Source: a virus. From it: a DNA stretch of 64,000 bases. The position numbers and the translations under genes were made by a program. How positions within the stretch are numbered: the first letter of the stretch is position 1; every line of letters starts with the position of its first letter. Shown piece after piece: positions 2,546-59,486 of this stretch. Location: the IMG/VR virus record IMGVR_UViG_3300045988_041382, positions 9,104-73,103 of that record, one strand, 5' to 3'. A model generated the notes under the pieces. It saw nothing but the letters and a program-made list of their open reading frames with translations. It made no database searches and was not told where the DNA came from.

Positions 2546-3093
2546 TTCTGCTCCTCCACATAGCACCAGCTTTGCGGTGCTTTAGTAATCGCCGCTGGAA
2601 TCATGCAATTTTCATCATAGATACAGGCTGTGCTTTCGTACCCGCTTTTGCTGCATGATTTGCATTTTTTCCAAGTGTGAAATTCTATCAGTTCCTTCGG
2701 CGCGTCGTAGATTTTCAGGTCGGAGATATGCCAACCGTAAATATAGTGTTTTCCCTCTTCGGAATATTTGAAATAGATATCTTCGCGGCGAACACAGGAT
2801 TGCTGTTCGGCAATGTCTGCATTTGCCATCTCACATCGTTGTAGGATGTAGTCGCACACAAACTCGCCGATAACCTTGCCGTTGCATCTGCCGACCGTAT
2901 TGGTCCGGACGGTATCCCTGTCCAGATTTCCACCCTTTACGGAGATATACGGATGACCACTTGTGCAGTAGATATAGCACTTAAACGGTACCTCCAGTTT
3001 CGGCACGGACTTACGCAATTCCATAGTTTTTCTGCCAATGATGATTTTCGCGCACCACTTCGGGCGAATGCTTATCATAACGGCCTTGCTCAT
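2542..3093 (-). CDS. ASCH-domain-like protein
   Basis: The start MSKAVMISIRPKWCAKIIIGRKTMELRK resembles the ASCH N-terminal beta-strand motif. The ATG overlaps the upstream stop. Confidence 0.55.
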   Translation of the reverse strand: MSKAVMISIRPKWCAKIIIGRKTMELRKSVPKLEVPFKCYIYCTSGHPYISVKGGNLDRDTVRTNTVGRCNGKVIGEFVCDYILQRCEMANADIAEQQSCVRREDIYFKYSEEGKHYIYGWHISDLKIYDAPKELIEFHTWKKCKSCSKSGYESTACIYDENCMIPAAITKAPQSWCYVEEQK

Positions 3094-9101: not shown

Positions 9102-9172
9102 GTGTAAAATCTGTACAAGAAAAGCACTTAATAATTGTCTATTCTGCCGATTGCAAAAACACTTGTTAAGTG
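9092..9172. promoter_or_regulatory. Three operator-like sites (CACTT-N3-AAGTG type)
   Basis: cacttatcaagtg at 9092-9104, cacttaataattg (half-degenerate) at 9125-9137, and cacttgttaagtg at 9160-9172. Confidence 0.6.
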
Positions 9173-42147: not shown

Positions 42148-42222
42148 TGGCGCGGACGCGAGGGCTCGAACCCCGAACTGCGGTTTTGGAGACCGCCGTT
42201 TTCCCGGTTAAACTAAATCCGC
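42148..42222 (-). tRNA. tRNA-Trp(CCA): tRNA-Trp (anticodon CCA) embedded in the head module
   Basis: Manual cloverleaf on the minus strand: GCGGATT-TA-GTTT-AACCGGG-AAAC-G-GCGGT-CTCCAAA-ACCGC-AGTT-CGGGG-TTCGAGC-CCTCG-CGTCCGC-G-CCA. One 7-66 mismatch. Confidence 0.8.
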
Positions 42223-54075: not shown

Positions 54076-54349
54076 CGTTCTCCTCCTTCACCGCCACAGC
54101 CTTTGCCAGCTGTGCCATGCCCTGATTCATGTCCTCTATCTGCTTATCCCGCCGCGCAATAGCGTCCTTCAGGCTGTCGTTGGCTTTCATCAGTGCCTCG
54201 ATGTGCCGCTGCTGGTTCTGGATCAGGTCAGCGGCGTATCCCATCGCTTTTTCGATACATCTAAACTCGTGGATCAGCGGACACGCTCCTTCGCATTTCT
54301 TATGCTGCTCGCAGCACCGCAGCGCGGTCACGATCTCATCTCTTGTCAT
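54056..54349 (-). CDS. Hypothetical coiled-coil protein
   Basis: The start MTRDEIVTALRCC overlaps the HNH stop. Confidence 0.5.
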   Translation of the reverse strand: MTRDEIVTALRCCEQHKKCEGACPLIHEFRCIEKAMGYAADLIQNQQRHIEALMKANDSLKDAIARRDKQIEDMNQGMAQLAKAVAVKEENDGQADI

Positions 54350-54864
54350 GTTATTCCTCCCACATACTTCCAGTGATACCCGCCTGCCGTGCCATGTTTT
54401 GGTCTCCCTAAGCACGCAGAACCAATATTGGCTCTGTTTATGCCTGTTCGTCTTGCCGCTTCGTGCGTAGAGGCAAACACCTCGCCGGTTTCAACACACA
54501 AGACTTTTTTGCTAAACGCAGGGTGGTTAATTTGGCTTTCTCCAATTCTCCGCCCTCGTGTTCCGTACCTGTTGTTGTAGGCAACATCGCACCACTCCAG
54601 GTTTTCTGCTGCGTTGTTCAGTTTGTCCTCGTCTTTATGATTGACTGACGGCAAATTGTTCTCGTTCGGCAAGAACGCCGTTGCCACAAGCCTATGCGTC
54701 TTGATCGTTTTTCGTTTTCCATTTACGCAAAGAACGTAATATCCATACCCGTCTTTGTCTGTGTTGGGTCGCAGCACTTTGCGCGACCTTTCGCTCCAAA
54801 GCGTTCCGCAACTGCCTATCTTGTATTGTCCTTCGTACCCAACTACATCCCTGAAAACTTCCAC
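54346..54864 (-). CDS. HNH homing endonuclease (NUMOD4 - HNH - C-terminal HTH/NUMOD1-like)
   Basis: N-terminal EVFRDVVGYEGQYKIGSCGTLWS is NUMOD4-like. HRLVATAFLPN...VNHKDEDKLNNAAENLEW is the HNH_3 type. C-terminal FASTHEAARRTGINRANI. Confidence 0.8.
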   Translation of the reverse strand: MEVFRDVVGYEGQYKIGSCGTLWSERSRKVLRPNTDKDGYGYYVLCVNGKRKTIKTHRLVATAFLPNENNLPSVNHKDEDKLNNAAENLEWCDVAYNNRYGTRGRRIGESQINHPAFSKKVLCVETGEVFASTHEAARRTGINRANIGSACLGRPKHGTAGGYHWKYVGGIT

Positions 54865-56796
54865 CAATCTCCCTCCTTCCCCGCTTCTTCATCGCCGAAA
54901 TGCTTTTTGGTCACGGCAATAGGGAATTGCTCAATTTCAGAACTCCACCGGCAGTGCTCTGCTCCGTGTATTCTCGCCCAGCAGACATTAAACCCCGAAA
55001 TGCCATCAAATAAGCTCCCCAGCGTCGCCCCCTCCGGCAGATACCGCGCCATGCGCCGCAGCATCCAGTCCCAGAAGGGCAGGGCGATGGAGTTGCCCAT
55101 CGCCTTGTACCGTGGGCTGTCCGCGTCCTTGTGCTTCTTTCCCTTTTCGTCTATCCACTCTCCGATGTCGGTCCAGTGGTCCGGGAAACCTTGCAGCCGT
55201 TCGCATTCCATCGGCGTCAACCGGCGCACCACCATGTTCTGCACCGGGTATGTCTCCGCGTCCTCCCGATAAGCGCAGTTCGCCTTTGCCCGCAGCGCGT
55301 GTGCCACATCCGGTGTTGCCCCGCACACCAGCATATCGTTGTATGCGTCCTGCCCGTTGTAGCTCCCGGCATGAGCGCCTGGGGAAAGCGTACCCGTCAC
55401 ATCTTGGTATGTAAGCGGCACTTGATTGCCGCCTGTCCCCATTCGAGCCTGCAACGCCGGGACCTGCTCTCCGTACTCGCGGATGACATCACAGGCGTGT
55501 GTCATGTCCAGCGCCACCGCCGGGGCAACTATTGCAATACCGCCTTGGTTTTTACTGGGCGTTGGGTCTGTGGTATCCAGTGTCTTAGCCACATCCACCT
55601 CCCTGCATCCACTGTGTGGGTTTTTGCTTTTCATGCTGTTGCTGGACAAACTGTCAAAGCTATATGCCACCGCTGGTGTCACCACTGCTGGGGTTCTGTT
55701 CGTCCCGCTGGGCGCCGCCGCCAGCGTGGGCGACACTTCCTCACTGTACCCGATGCCGCCCGCCTGTGCGCCCTGTCCGGCCTTAAACCCGGCACATAGC
55801 ACGGCTTCGCGGTTCAGACCACTGTTTTCACGGGAACTGAGCGTAGGTGAAACGCCGTTACCATCGTATACTCGCTGGCTCTGTGCGTCCCAAGGTGTCA
55901 TGCACACAACCTCCGCGCACACCGCAGGACGATCTATGGTATTCAACGTATAGCACGCATCTTCCCGCCAGCCCTTCCCGTTGCATCCGGCGGTATCGGC
56001 GCGGTCAATGCCGTTGCCTTGCAGACAGAAAATCGTCTGGTCGTTGCCGGTTCCAAGCGTTCCGCTTTTCTCCGTCTGCACTAACGCGCCTTTTCCTCCT
56101 CCGTCACAGCCCCCCTGATGCGGACTGCATACGATGTTGGGGTCTCTGTCGGCGCAGGGGCTTCCGTCCGCTCTTGCGGTGAGACTCCTTGCGACTGCCG
56201 GATTAAAACCGCTTTCAGCAGCTTCGGCAAGTCCTTCCCCCGCCGCTCCGCTCTCCGCAATATCCCCTGACACGCTTTTGCGGTCAAATTGTATTTCGGA
56301 TGCGGTGTCTCCTCCAAAATCTGCGACAACCGAGATGCGACGACGGCGTTGGGGCACTCCCCAGTGTTGCGCGTCGTGAGTTCGCCACACCACGCTCCAT
56401 CGTCCTCCCACCTCATCGTGGTACCCCCCCCAGGTAGGCCAGCCCTTTTCAGGCACTTCAATACTGGGGGCTTCCGGCTCGACGATTTTGATGATCTCTT
56501 CGAGCACGGCTGCGAAGTCTTTTCCTTTGTTGCTGCTAAAGGCTCCGACCACGTTTTCCCACACGAGATACCGAGGTCTGACCATGTCACCTGTCCGTCC
56601 ATTCCTTTTGTCCGTCTCCCTCATTTCTTTTACGATACGTACCTGCTCCATAAACAGGCCGCTTCGCGCTCCCGCCAAACCGGCGCGTTTCCCGGCGATG
56701 GATAGATCCTGTCTAACAAGGTGAACCACCTGTAATACACCAAACGGGTTCAATCTCTGCCCCATTTATTTTCGTAATATCGCCTAAATGTTTCAC
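54843..56796 (-). CDS. Multi-TRD DNA (cytosine-5) methyltransferase, circularly permuted. The first 27 codons (including the catalytic Pro-Cys) are in a different frame from the 640-aa body.
   Basis: A GTG at 56796 follows RBS AGGAGGTGA and gives VKHLGDITKINGAEIEPVWCITGGSPC, ending at TAG (56715-56713). The body is in the +1 frame: QDLSIAGKRAGL (rest of motif IV), ENV, QRRRR, a long TRD with several T-L motifs, RLQGFPD, GNSI. Motif I (LFDGISGF) and motif II (SEIE) then come at the C-terminus. Confidence 0.75.
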
Positions 56797-56808
56797 CTAA
56801 ATCACCTC

Positions 56809-57084
56809 CTAATCTCCAAACACAACGCCGCACTCGTCCTTCAGCACGTCCTTGATGTGCTTCCGCTTGATGCGGCCCTCGTTTATTTCCTCCGCCAGCT
56901 TCTCCAGGCACTCGTACAGATACGCGATGCTGTGGGTGTCCCGGCTGTCCGATGTCTCCTCTTGGACGTGCCAGCCGCACTTGTCCATCAGCACCATTGC
57001 CACCATGTCCATGTTCTCCCGTGTGCCTTGCAGCTTGCCCCGCATAAAGATGCGGTCGTCCCTGCTCAAATGCTGTTTACCCAT
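56809..57084 (-). CDS. Hypothetical protein
   Basis: The start MGKQHLSRDD follows GGAGG and overlaps the upstream stop. Confidence 0.5.
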   Translation of the reverse strand: MGKQHLSRDDRIFMRGKLQGTRENMDMVAMVLMDKCGWHVQEETSDSRDTHSIAYLYECLEKLAEEINEGRIKRKHIKDVLKDECGVVFGD

Positions 57085-57607: not shown

Positions 57608-58099
57608 CTAAACCTCCCTCACCGTGATGCCGTGGAAATACAGCATCATCTTCCTTTTCATCACAAATAGTCTGTATGTGGCGCTGCTGGTGTCGCGGAA
57701 GCCCTTGCTGTCCTCCACCACCGTCTCGCCGCCCTGCTCGTATACGAAGTCGGCCACGTACTCTATGCCTTTCTCCTTCGTGCCGTCCTTGTGTACCTGC
57801 CTCGGTATCAATTCGTACTTTACCTGCGTCCGCAGACCGGATATTTCACCGGCTCTCTGCATCAGCCAAAGATCCATGTATCGCCGCGCCTCCCGCTTGC
57901 TGACGAAGTGCATCAGCGTCCCGTCCGGCATGGTCAAGTCCACTTTCTCGGCGTGGAGTTTGTTGCCCTTTTTCGGCTTTGCGGCCTTTTCCGTCTCCTG
58001 TGCTGCTTTCTGTGCCGCCTGCTGCGCCTGTACTTTTTGCAATATCTGCGCCTGAGCCTTCTGGCTGAAGCGGCCTATGTCCTCCATTGTCAATCCCAT
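57608..58099 (-). CDS. DUF1064-like (endonuclease-fold) phage protein
   Basis: The C-terminal ...GIEYVADFVYEQGGETVVEDSKGFRDTSSATYRLFVMKRKMM is typical of the family. Confidence 0.6.
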   Translation of the reverse strand: MGLTMEDIGRFSQKAQAQILQKVQAQQAAQKAAQETEKAAKPKKGNKLHAEKVDLTMPDGTLMHFVSKREARRYMDLWLMQRAGEISGLRTQVKYELIPRQVHKDGTKEKGIEYVADFVYEQGGETVVEDSKGFRDTSSATYRLFVMKRKMMLYFHGITVREV

Positions 58100-58103
58100 C
58101 GGT

Positions 58104-59486
58104 TCAGTCCCCCTCCACCGTGCCCATTTCCAGGCGCCGCCTCCGTGGCCGCCGGTGGAACTTGTCCCTCGGTTCTTCGTTTTCTGTACGGCTACTCAGC
58201 TCCGTGAAAGTCATCTTCGACCCGTCGAAGTAGAAGTTCACGTCCCCGGTGCGTCCTCTCCGGTTCTTTGCCACCGTGCAGCCCACCTGCGTGTCGTCCG
58301 CCGGGTCGGTTTTCCATAGGAAGATCACCTTCACCGCGTTCTGCTCCAGCTCGCCGCTGTCGCGCAGGGAGCTCAGCTTCGGCTTGTCCGTTTCGTTCAC
58401 CGTGCGGCTCAGCTGCGCCGCCGCCACAATGGGTATCTCCAGCTCCGATGCCAGCAGCTTCAGCTCACGGCTTATGCCGCCCAGCTCCAGGTTACGGTTC
58501 TCGGCTTTCTTGTCTTTTTCGCCGATCATCAACCCCAGATAGTCCACCACGATCATTTTCAGGTCATCTATGCCCAGCGCCAGCTCTCGTATGCGGCTCA
58601 CCGTCACGTCCGGTCCGTCGTAGAAGTACACCGGCAGTTTTGCCTCCATGCTGGCGGTGTAGGCGATATTCATCCACAGATCCTCGTCCGTCTCCGGAAC
58701 GCCATCTATAAGCTGGTCCATCGTCACGCCCTCGGTCCGCTTGGCCAGTAGACGTTCGCCCACTTCCCCGGCCAGCATCTCCGCCGTGATGTGCAGCACC
58801 GTCTTGCCGCCCCGCGCCGCATATTCTGTCATCTCCATGCATAAGGCGCTTTTGCCGCATCCGGGCCGCGCACCAACCAGAATGAGTTGCCCCGGCCACA
58901 GGCCCTTCAGCGTGGCATCCAGCAGAGGGAAGCCAGTGTCTATGCGTCCCTCCTTTTTGCCTGCCACGCTGTTCATGGCCTCGCTCATGGCATCCGCCAT
59001 CGTTTTCAGCCGTCCGCCTCGCCGTGAGCGCATCTTCTGGTGGCATATCGCCGCCACCGCCGCTTGTGGGTCGTCCTCGCCGGTCAGTGCGTCCATCACC
59101 GCCTGGGTAAACCGCCGCTTCTCCGCCTTCTTCCGCACGATCTGCGCGTACTCCATAGCGTTGGCGCTGGTGGGGGTGATCTCCATGCACTGCAGCAGGT
59201 AGTTGCGCGTTTCGCTGCTGTACAGTCCCTCCCGCTCCAATTCGCTGGCCACGGTCAATCCATCTATGGGCTTCGCCGCCACATACATCCGCCGCACGGT
59301 CTCGAAGATGTCCTGGTTGGTCTGTATAAAGAAATCCTCGCCCTCCAGGCATTTCATCAGGTCTTTCACGCAGGAGGCGTCTATCAGCATCGAACCGATC
59401 ACCGCCCGCTCCGCATCTGCGGAGTAGTCCTGCTGCCACAGCGCCGGTTCCGGGGCAGCGTCCTTACTGATCACGCCTATTTCCAT
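58104..59486 (-). CDS. dnaB: Replicative DNA helicase (DnaB family)
   Basis: N-terminal ...ERAVIGSMLID...; Walker A GARPGCGKSALCMEM; 460 aa. Confidence 0.95.
   Translation of the reverse strand: MEIGVISKDAAPEPALWQQDYSADAERAVIGSMLIDASCVKDLMKCLEGEDFFIQTNQDIFETVRRMYVAAKPIDGLTVASELEREGLYSSETRNYLLQCMEITPTSANAMEYAQIVRKKAEKRRFTQAVMDALTGEDDPQAAVAAICHQKMRSRRGGRLKTMADAMSEAMNSVAGKKEGRIDTGFPLLDATLKGLWPGQLILVGARPGCGKSALCMEMTEYAARGGKTVLHITAEMLAGEVGERLLAKRTEGVTMDQLIDGVPETDEDLWMNIAYTASMEAKLPVYFYDGPDVTVSRIRELALGIDDLKMIVVDYLGLMIGEKDKKAENRNLELGGISRELKLLASELEIPIVAAAQLSRTVNETDKPKLSSLRDSGELEQNAVKVIFLWKTDPADDTQVGCTVAKNRRGRTGDVNFYFDGSKMTFTELSSRTENEEPRDKFHRRPRRRRLEMGTVEGD

Follow-up and report, generated by a model that had tools for sequence, protein, structure and literature searches.

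Can a phage gene for a C5-cytosine methyltransferase (C5-MTase) yield a complete enzyme when four nucleotides containing a stop codon stand directly after its catalytic Cys codon? The question is raised by a locus on the minus strand of a 64,000-nt stretch of viral DNA (IMG/VR record IMGVR_UViG_3300045988_041382, positions 9,104 to 73,103; hereafter the window), in which a short frame ending in the catalytic Pro-Cys is separated from the rest of the gene by the tetranucleotide TAGA. The original prediction, made from the letters of the window alone, had described a circularly permuted enzyme with a multi-unit target-recognition region, and had left two possibilities for TAGA, a recoding site or a fresh pseudogene. 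The comparative data presented here show that a conserved cis signal exists and that TAGA is one member of a conserved TAG-N signal. This signal probably serves translational recoding of some kind, be it a frameshift or a bypass. To the specific reading that we favor, a programmed +1 frameshift that depends on the stop codon and is stimulated by an upstream Shine-Dalgarno (SD)-like element, we assign a probability of roughly 0.6; the frameshift as such is inferred, and so are its direction, product and purpose.

The catalytic motif is interrupted by exactly four nucleotides

Translation from the GTG at 56796 yields VKHLGDITKINGAEIEPVWCITGGSPC (KHLGDITKI…GGSPC), a frame of 27 codons whose last codon is the TGT at 56718-56716, and then meets TAG. 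The +1 frame opens with the CAG at 56711-56709 (CAG GAT CTA…), continues as QDLSIAGKRAGLAGARSGLF… and runs through 622 uninterrupted codons to its stop. A contiguous Pro-Cys-Gln in a single frame is absent from this gene, because TAGA occupies positions 56715-56712, and PCQ is found in intact relatives. The positions and sequences of the GTG, the AGGAGG that precedes it and TAGA agree with those first reported, as does the reading that the PC|Q motif is broken by exactly 4 nt containing a stop codon. The 640-aa open reading frame (ORF) listed for the locus, which opens with the ATG at 56765, is the same +1 frame extended upstream, and no purine-rich ribosome-binding site precedes its ATG. This internal ATG was rejected as the true start, as the +1 frame lacks an ATG in 45 of 123 contexts. 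All features of the locus are collected in Table 1.

The insert recurs in independent datasets

The exact 24-mer across the insert site was present in 90 IMG/VR contigs, and a scan with the pattern GGNGGNWSNCCNTGYTAGNCARGAYYT, in which each GGSPC and QDL codon is fully degenerate, retrieved TGT-TAG-N-CAR from at least 119 IMG/VR contigs. These matches come from approximately 27 dataset identifiers, counted by eye from the contig names, and conservation of the TAG-N insert among homologs is the outcome of a check that the original prediction had proposed. Among GenBank faecal-virome contigs, the insert is carried by MT836871 (as TAGA) and MT835520 (as TAGC), and MT835513 has an uninterrupted TGTCAG. 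It was also found in eight genome contigs, among them contigs of the isolate Oscillibacter sp. 1-3 and of metagenome-assembled genomes of Dysosmobacter, Oscillospiraceae and Clostridia; hosts within the Oscillospiraceae are indicated. Six of 25 database homologs inspected start with MGQRLNPFGVLQVVHLV[R/S]QDLS, which corresponds to an insert allele called from the internal ATG.

Because the insert recurs in independent datasets, an assembly error or a private mutation is ruled out. Of the two possibilities first left for TAGA, a recoding-type site is strongly favored by the comparison, and a fresh pseudogene or an assembly indel is disfavored.

Both reading frames and the insert itself are constrained

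For quantitative comparison, 84-85 unique insert contexts were set against 64 unique uninterrupted contexts of the permuted type. A GTG stands exactly 27 codons before the TAG, with no stop codon or indel in between, in all 85 insert contexts (85/85), in keeping with the earlier preference for the GTG at 56796 as the true start over an ATG at 56765 that lacks a ribosome-binding site; the start codon is ATG in 73% of intact alleles. Over codons 1-21 of the insert alleles, synonymous diversity (pS) is near saturation at 0.70 and nonsynonymous diversity (pN) is 0.23, a ratio of 0.33 compared with 0.35 in intact alleles. The upstream peptides accordingly span sequences from VKHLGDITKINGAEIEPVWCIT to VEHLGDITKLNGYELPAVDVVI, and the motif III/IV pattern is always kept. 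In the downstream codons pN/pS is 0.18 in both sets, and the downstream ORF is full length at 49 of the 93 loci with the insert and at 23 of the 41 intact ones, with most truncations in both sets lying at homopolymer tracts (27% of insert versus 32% of intact alleles).

Against this background of free synonymous variation, the five codons directly before the TAG are nearly frozen as GGT GGT TCA CCT TGT (pS 0.11, compared with 0.71 in intact alleles). Synonymous heterozygosity at the successive GGSPC codons is 0.09, 0.17, 0.05, 0.15 and 0.00 in insert alleles and 0.41-0.75 in intact ones; the Cys codon is TGT in 84 of 84 insert alleles, whereas the intact alleles divide into 32 with TGC and 32 with TGT. 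From the first codon after the insert, synonymous diversity is normal in both sets. The insert is constrained in its own right, UAG being the conserved in-frame stop at the proposed shift site in all 85 unique contexts. Neither TAA nor TGA gave a match at the insert position, and none was obtained for an insert T followed by a base other than A; a first insert base other than T gave two matches, both in unrelated sequences, and TAA, TAC or TAT versions gave two among 241 million metagenome records, both again unrelated. The base following TAG is A in 57 of the 85 contexts, C in 24, T in 4 and G in none, an order that is roughly the inverse of the reported strength of UAG-N termination in Escherichia coli. 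The codon after the insert is CAG in 66 contexts and CAA in 19.

Another conserved element lies at the start of the gene. Only the insert-bearing alleles share the initiation region GG[AG]GGTG[AG]TTT[AT]G-GTG, and in 83 of 84 of them the second codon following the start is CAT; the codons between this region and the frozen block have diverged. Mean nucleotide distance is 0.30 within the insert set and 0.34 within the intact set. Neighbor-joining trees intermix the two states and require at least 13 changes between them, a result that is indicative only as the sequences are short and the family recombines. Distances and trees suggest that the insert state is old or has been repeatedly transferred.

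Two further features of this end of the gene can be recorded here. In the window, the TAG of the preceding 102-aa ORF, three codons (GAG GTG ATT), the second TAG and the GTG start all lie in one frame (56794-56811, minus strand); the arrangement GGTGATTTAG-GTG is kept in most insert alleles and holds a possible GTG-ATT-TAG mini-ORF, and the initiation region resembles the internal block (AGGTG[A/G]TT…TAG). In addition, the window allele has mostly A/T-ending codons in its 27-codon upstream frame (56716-56796), whereas an intact allele with a near-identical gene body (relative L097, positions 3001-3081) has G/C-ending ones there, so that it looks as if the 5' module had a different origin from the rest of this 57%-GC phage.

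Taken together, the invariant GTG at 27 codons, the purifying selection upstream, the frozen block, the normal diversity directly after the insert, the restriction to TAG, the preserved downstream ORFs and the linked initiation region are not predicted for a decaying pseudogene or a recent short-patch lesion. They bear in the same way on the possibility that the insert is a null allele, a pseudogenising lesion of single origin that recombination has spread among mosaic phages, and that might persist either because loss of 5-methylcytosine is useful where methylation-dependent restriction is at work, or through hitch-hiking with a selfish element linked to it, for example the adjoining HNH gene. 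Such a history would suit a highly mosaic family in which insert and intact alleles intermingle on trees, in which about 30% of alleles of either type have extra homopolymer frameshifts, and in which a mobile HNH gene adjoins the locus; the A/T-ending first 27 codons of the window allele, set against the rest of its gene, could likewise have been imported. A lesion would nevertheless have to leave 27 codons without a single stop or indel in all 85 contexts despite near-saturated synonymous divergence, with pN/pS as in intact alleles, hold the TAG and the 15-nt block invariant while neighboring synonymous sites vary freely, and preserve the downstream ORFs as well as in intact alleles. The GTG and its special initiation region, 66-95 nt away, would also have to be co-inherited with the insert every time across diverged intervening codons, and the HNH gene adjoins both allele types and is absent from one insert allele. 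We leave this explanation only a small chance.

A reversible switch at the DNA level, in which the four nucleotides are inserted and excised so that part of the phage population carries an intact PCQ, is very improbable. Phase variation may operate in this family, as the gene has length-variable poly-G tracts. TAGA, by contrast, lies in no repeat, IMG/VR holds no allele with the frozen block and without the insert (three matches to the junction sequence are unrelated genes), and intact alleles use other codons throughout GGSPC.

Position of the proposed frame change and a candidate stimulator

A stop codon closes the +1 frame 5-7 codons before the insert in 33 of 123 contexts. As the +1 frame is open for only those 5-7 codons in these alleles, any frame change must fall inside the frozen block. 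Within the block, AGGUGGUUC at positions -13 to -5 is complementary to GGAUCACCU of 16S rRNA, and the block with its preceding A is predicted to form with GGAUCACCUCCUUUCU, the 3' tail of 16S rRNA, a duplex of -13.1 kcal/mol, stronger than any other in the region. For this anti-SD duplex the mean energy is -12.3 kcal/mol in insert alleles compared with -9.7 kcal/mol, with more scatter, in intact alleles. Rare variants of the block, for example GGA GGC, create a canonical GGAGG and break a GGUG/CACC hairpin, and for this reason complementarity to the anti-SD fits the variants better than the hairpin does. A long-range pairing between AGGUGAA at the start and UUCACCU in the block, both of which are invariant, is present in the minimum free energy structure but is not significant, with a z-score of -0.99.

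In the programmed +1 frameshift that we favor, ribosomes starting at the GTG at 56796 would read 27 codons to …GGSPC and then face UAG, with a wobble-reading tRNA-Cys on UGU in the P site, CCU as the E-site codon and base pairing between AGGUGGUUC and the 16S 3' tail. Slow termination by release factor 1 (RF1) at UAG-A would allow a fraction of them to move +1, skipping the U and reading AGA followed by CAG GAU…, with the SD-like block GGTGGTTCA acting as the upstream stimulator of the shift. The product would be …GGSPC-R-QDLSIAG… (PC-S-Q from TAGC and TAGT alleles), recognizable by the tryptic peptide INGAEIEPVWCITGGSPCR, and the remaining ribosomes would terminate and release a 27-aa peptide. 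Frameshift and GTG start together would hold a promiscuous, potentially harmful methyltransferase at a very low amount; sequestration of the SD sequence may contribute further to low or conditional expression, and expression could be coupled to the termination capacity of the cell.

Several points weigh against this proposal. The P-site tRNA-Cys (anticodon GCA) cannot re-pair in the +1 frame, where UGU becomes GUU. The core GGUGG ends 7 nt upstream of the P-site codon UGU, and the extended pairing 4 nt upstream of it; stimulation of the +1 shift in prfB uses a spacing of 3 nt, and the longer spacing found here resembles that of -1 stimulators. A local hairpin or pseudoknot was rejected as a stimulator, as the folds are no better than those of shuffled sequences (z-scores from -1.4 to +1.3). 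Activity of a PC-R/S-Q enzyme is doubtful given the extra Arg or Ser and the lack of any in-frame PC[R/S]QDL allele in IMG/VR. Finally, the family is mosaic, and recombination could make the insert state look older than it is.

Two other ways of reading the stop as sense were discarded. Reassignment of TAG to Gln would keep the ribosome in the wrong frame and give a junk product, and no suppressor or quadruplet-reading tRNA is at hand among the tRNAs of the window, which are only tRNA-Gly(TCC), tRNA-Met(CAT) and tRNA-Trp(CCA); quadruplet decoding by a phage tRNA, one of the options first raised for TAGA, is without support given these normal anticodons.

The doubt over an extra residue would vanish if ribosomes made a short bypass over UAGN and restored an exact PCQ, with the product …GGSPCQDLSIAGK (…GGSPCQDLS…) and the tryptic peptide INGAEIEPVWCITGGSPCQDLSIAGK. 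Speculatively, a near-cognate tRNA-Gln might read UAG by a G·U pair at the first position and re-pair on the CAG or CAA located 4 nt downstream. It suits this route that a cognate Gln codon always follows exactly one base after UAG (CAG 66, CAA 19), that UAG, a stop misread by tRNA-Gln, is the sole stop found, and that the fourth base alternates between Arg and Ser options with no in-frame PC[R/S]Q known, as expected if it is never translated. A stop codon follows the take-off codon in the bypass of T4 gene 60 and in short hops over stop codons in E. coli, which the arrangement here recalls. Two rare events, readthrough and then a +4 slide, would however be required; no Cys codon (UGY) is available as landing site for a classical hop from UGU, the CAG/CAA usage equals that of intact alleles and leaves the landing codon without extra constraint, and a conserved 4-nt bypass is without known precedent. 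On balance we regard a bypass as unlikely.

We also doubt that the two frames are expressed separately with no recoding at all, either as a split enzyme composed of the 27-aa peptide and a large subunit re-initiated at the +1-frame GTG within GGTGGT (beginning MVHLV[R/S]QDL), or as a DNA-binding protein devoid of the Cys; the conserved block would then be overlapping coding sequence or a re-initiation signal. A GTG in the +1 frame does stand five codons before the insert in nearly all alleles, an SD-like sequence lies within the block, and both ORFs are under selection. M.AquI is an example of a naturally split C5-MTase. Other precedents can be cited, as naturally bisected C5-MTases exist and engineered C5-MTase fragments can complement each other (PMC5944983). 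Yet that GTG sits inside the SD-like sequence with no SD of its own upstream, two of 123 contexts have no +1-frame start of any kind, and four of 84 contexts are block variants (GGC or GGA as the first Gly codon) that lack it. The need for a start codon leaves the frozen TCA, CCT and TGT unexplained, as it does the use of TAG as the only stop and the absence of G as the fourth base, and a break right after the catalytic Cys, in which a 27-residue fragment supplies two core strands, is without precedent.

A more far-reaching version, in which UAG-N is a new kind of recoding signal that either produces an exact PCQ through a 4-nt bypass or shifts frame without re-pairing, and acts as an RF1-sensitive gate, is a tentative idea that we consider rather unlikely. 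If it were true, a promiscuous methyltransferase would be made only when UAG termination in the host is slow, with the sensor placed inside the active site of an enzyme whose Type B topology had not been seen among natural enzymes.

The gene belongs to a family of naturally permuted methyltransferases

The identity of the enzyme was analyzed on the repaired protein, 649 aa long, obtained by removing TAGA in silico. It scored 82.1 bits in two stretches with the PF00145 profile (cut-off 22) and 79.7 bits with TIGR00675, which is under the cut-off of 100.65, and matched PHROG 116, annotated as DNA methyltransferase. All C5-MTase motifs are present (LFDGISGF, GGSPC|QDLS, WENV, PQRRRR, RLQGFPD and GNSIALP) and align to M.HhaI, in an order that bears out the permutation (III-X, I, II) originally proposed: M.HhaI residues 58-112 (motifs III-V) correspond to residues 4-58 of the repaired protein, 153-171 (motif VIII) to 140-159, 268-289 (motif IX) to 519-540, and 16-57 (motifs I-II) to 593-636. 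The gene thus runs from motif III to VIII, through the target-recognition domains, to IX, X, I and II, with the break between M.HhaI residues 57 and 58. The protein begins between motifs II and III, with motif X joined to motif I, which is the topology called 'Type B'. These alignments indicate that the gene is a phage multi-unit C5-MTase with a natural circular permutation.

A search with the repaired protein returned at least 8000 matches, most with coverage near 100%, and the permuted order is family-wide. Uninterrupted homologs start M[KVI]HLGDI[CT]KING…GGSPCQDLSIAG and finish …LFDGI[SGA]GF…SEIE.FPIAVTKK.FG[DE]E…. The multi-unit variable region also stood up to analysis: residues 239-462 of the repaired protein contain six Thr-Leu (T-L) units, and homologs differ in the presence of units of about 40-60 aa. 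The KH(L/F)GD strings at both ends had been taken as the remnant of a tandem duplication, a view that we do not uphold. In a relative of canonical motif order (L173, IMGVR_UViG_3300009770_000040) the uncut junction reads …SEIEPFPIKVTKHHFPN-VKHLGDITKING… (…VTKHHFPN|VKHLGD…), so that the two strings match adjacent ancestral segments and are therefore not a duplication scar. In another relative (L170, IMGVR_UViG_2061766007_000057), the segment from the target-recognition domains through IX, X, I and II continues in frame into MKHYGDITKI… and motifs III-VIII, which represents either two fused tandem permuted genes or the duplication intermediate expected in the origin of the permutation. No second, unpermuted C5-MTase was found within the window; such a copy nearby had been put forward as a way to explain the fragments as debris.

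Engineered permutants of 'Type B' were the most active of all those made (Slaska-Kiss et al. 2018, PMC5944983), and the REBASE survey of 2018 did not find this permutation among natural enzymes (PMC5944983). The literature searched contained no report of a natural Type B enzyme and nothing relevant beyond PMC5944983, and no frameshift site in a C5-MTase gene was found in it.

An AlphaFold model of an intact homolog, built with a 17-sequence alignment, had a mean predicted local distance difference test score (pLDDT) of 28. Some homologs carry large additions within the catalytic domain: an 808-aa protein (P0076) has about 300 extra residues after QRRRR, and two others, L053 and L282 (Oscillibacter sp. 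1-3), have insertions after DAQ and ENVP respectively, of which that in L053 is AT-rich. Mobile elements or introns might account for such additions, as might plain disruption of the gene.

Homopolymer tracts and neighboring genes

Two poly-G tracts lie within the downstream frame (Table 1), and about 30% of insert alleles, and likewise of intact alleles, are truncated beside such tracts. Variation in their length could be phase variation or homopolymer assembly error. At its 3' end the methyltransferase gene overlaps a free-standing HNH gene that adjoins both insert and intact alleles. Phage MT835520, which is 92% identical, lacks the HNH cassette (approximately 54361-54897, about 537 bp), and window position 54360 is directly followed there by 54898. 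The last 14 or so codons of the methyltransferase (…EEAGKEGDWWKFSGM) appear to come from the leader of the cassette, and many homologs end …FGEE instead. The methyltransferase sits in a replication module together with a DUF1064 gene and a DnaB-like helicase gene (57608-59486, minus strand), and the intact-allele relative L097 also has an MT-A70 adenine methyltransferase downstream.

Table 1. Features of the methyltransferase locus and of the rest of the window.
Feature	Position	Strand	Remark
Stop TAG of the 102-aa ORF	56811-56809	-	Read from sequence
AGGAGG	56810-56805	-	8 nt before GTG 56796
Extended SD sequence of the methyltransferase gene, AGGAGGTGAT	56801-56810	-	Overlaps TAG of the 102-aa ORF (56809-56811)
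Second in-frame TAG	56799-56797	-	Directly before GTG start; from sequence
GTG start codon	56794-56796	-	Also the start in 85/85 unique insert contexts
Upstream frame, 27 codons	56716-56796	-	Motif III (GDITKI) and motif IV to the catalytic Pro-Cys
Nucleotide-frozen 15-nt block GGTGGTTCACCTTGT, codons GGSPC	56716-56730	-	Candidate 5' stimulator
4-nt insert TAGA	56712-56715	-	Proposed shift site; TAG 56713-56715 and A 56712
Downstream +1 frame	54843-56711	-	Full length, intact in window; stop 54845-54843
Motif IV remainder, QDLSIAG	56691-56711	-	
Motif VI, ENV	56544-56561	-	
G8 tract (C8 on +), codons W-G-G-Y	56424-56431	-	G9 in relatives, out of frame
Motif VIII, QRRRR	56337-56354	-	
G6 tract, codons H-Q-G-G-C	56110-56115	-	G7 to G9 in relatives shifts frame
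Variable region, six T-L units	about 55377-56066	-	Repaired residues 239-462
Motif IX, RLQGFPD	55179-55199	-	
Motif X, GNSIALP	55077-55097	-	
Motif I, LFDGISGF	54990-55013	-	
Motif II, SEIE	54930-54941	-	
Free-standing HNH/NUMOD4 homing-type endonuclease gene	54346-54867	-	Overlaps last 25 nt of the methyltransferase gene
DUF1064 gene	57608-58099	-	
DnaB-like helicase, 460 aa	58104-59486	-	From reading of the translation and position relative to the L097 DnaB gene
tRNA-Gly(TCC)	16394-16470	+	
tRNA-Met(CAT)	16963-17038	+	
tRNA-Trp(CCA)	42148-42222	-	

Implications

Known bacterial +1 frameshift sites form a short list, composed of prfB and a few phage structural genes. If the site described here is a programmed frameshift, it would add a conserved, abundant and UAG-dependent recoding signal from gut Firmicute phages, and a P-site codon that does not re-pair would challenge the standard slippage model. 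Translation would then be the level at which the phage throttles or gates a multispecific anti-restriction methyltransferase. As database entries that start at the internal ATG lack the catalytic Cys, the methylation potential of phages in gut viromes may be misjudged. Independently of the frameshift, the family represents a natural 'Type B' permutation and offers a natural test of the explanation by S-adenosylmethionine affinity given in PMC5944983.

Comparison with known systems

The closest parallels to the proposed frameshift are prfB and antizyme, with which it shares an in-frame stop codon in the A site as a pause, a conserved upstream complement to the 16S 3' tail, fixed E- and P-site codons, a termination context that appears weak, and a shift that would be obligatory for the full-length protein. 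It differs from prfB in that the stop is UAG, which is read by RF1, and not UGA; in that the +1 frame offers no pairing for the tRNA on UGU, whereas re-pairing is possible on CUU_U in prfB (and on CCC_U at other sites); and in that the SD-like element is located 4-7 nt from the P-site codon instead of 3 nt. A shift of this non-slipping kind would be closer to the antizyme site UCC_UGA_U or to Ty3-type sites, which shift without slippage. Unlike prfB, the gene encodes a phage DNA methyltransferase, the site lies inside the catalytic motif, and no autoregulatory logic is evident. As in the T4 gene 60 bypass, a stop codon follows the take-off codon, here UGU, but no matched UGY landing codon is present, and re-pairing of tRNA-Gln from UAG to CAG is only conceivable.

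The G8 and G6 tracts resemble those of phasevarion methyltransferases, since their length varies and shifts the frame in about 30% of alleles, whereas the TAGA site is non-repetitive and invariant. The multispecific enzymes of Bacillus phages (M.SPRI, M.phi3TI, M.rho11sI and M.H2I) are likewise phage-encoded, and units are present or absent among the relatives of the gene described here; in those enzymes the motifs follow the canonical order and PCQ is uninterrupted, whereas this gene is permuted and interrupted.

As regards the permutation, M.BssHII, M.Alw26I, M.Esp3I and plant DRM2 likewise carry the ten motifs in permuted order. In DRM2, motifs VI-X precede motifs I-V. Here only motifs I-II have moved to the C-terminus, unlike in DRM2 or enzymes of the M.BssHII type. 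In M.BssHII, classed as 'Type H' (PMC5944983), the break lies in the variable region and motifs IX-X precede I-VIII, an arrangement that the present gene does not have. [quoted passage not shown]

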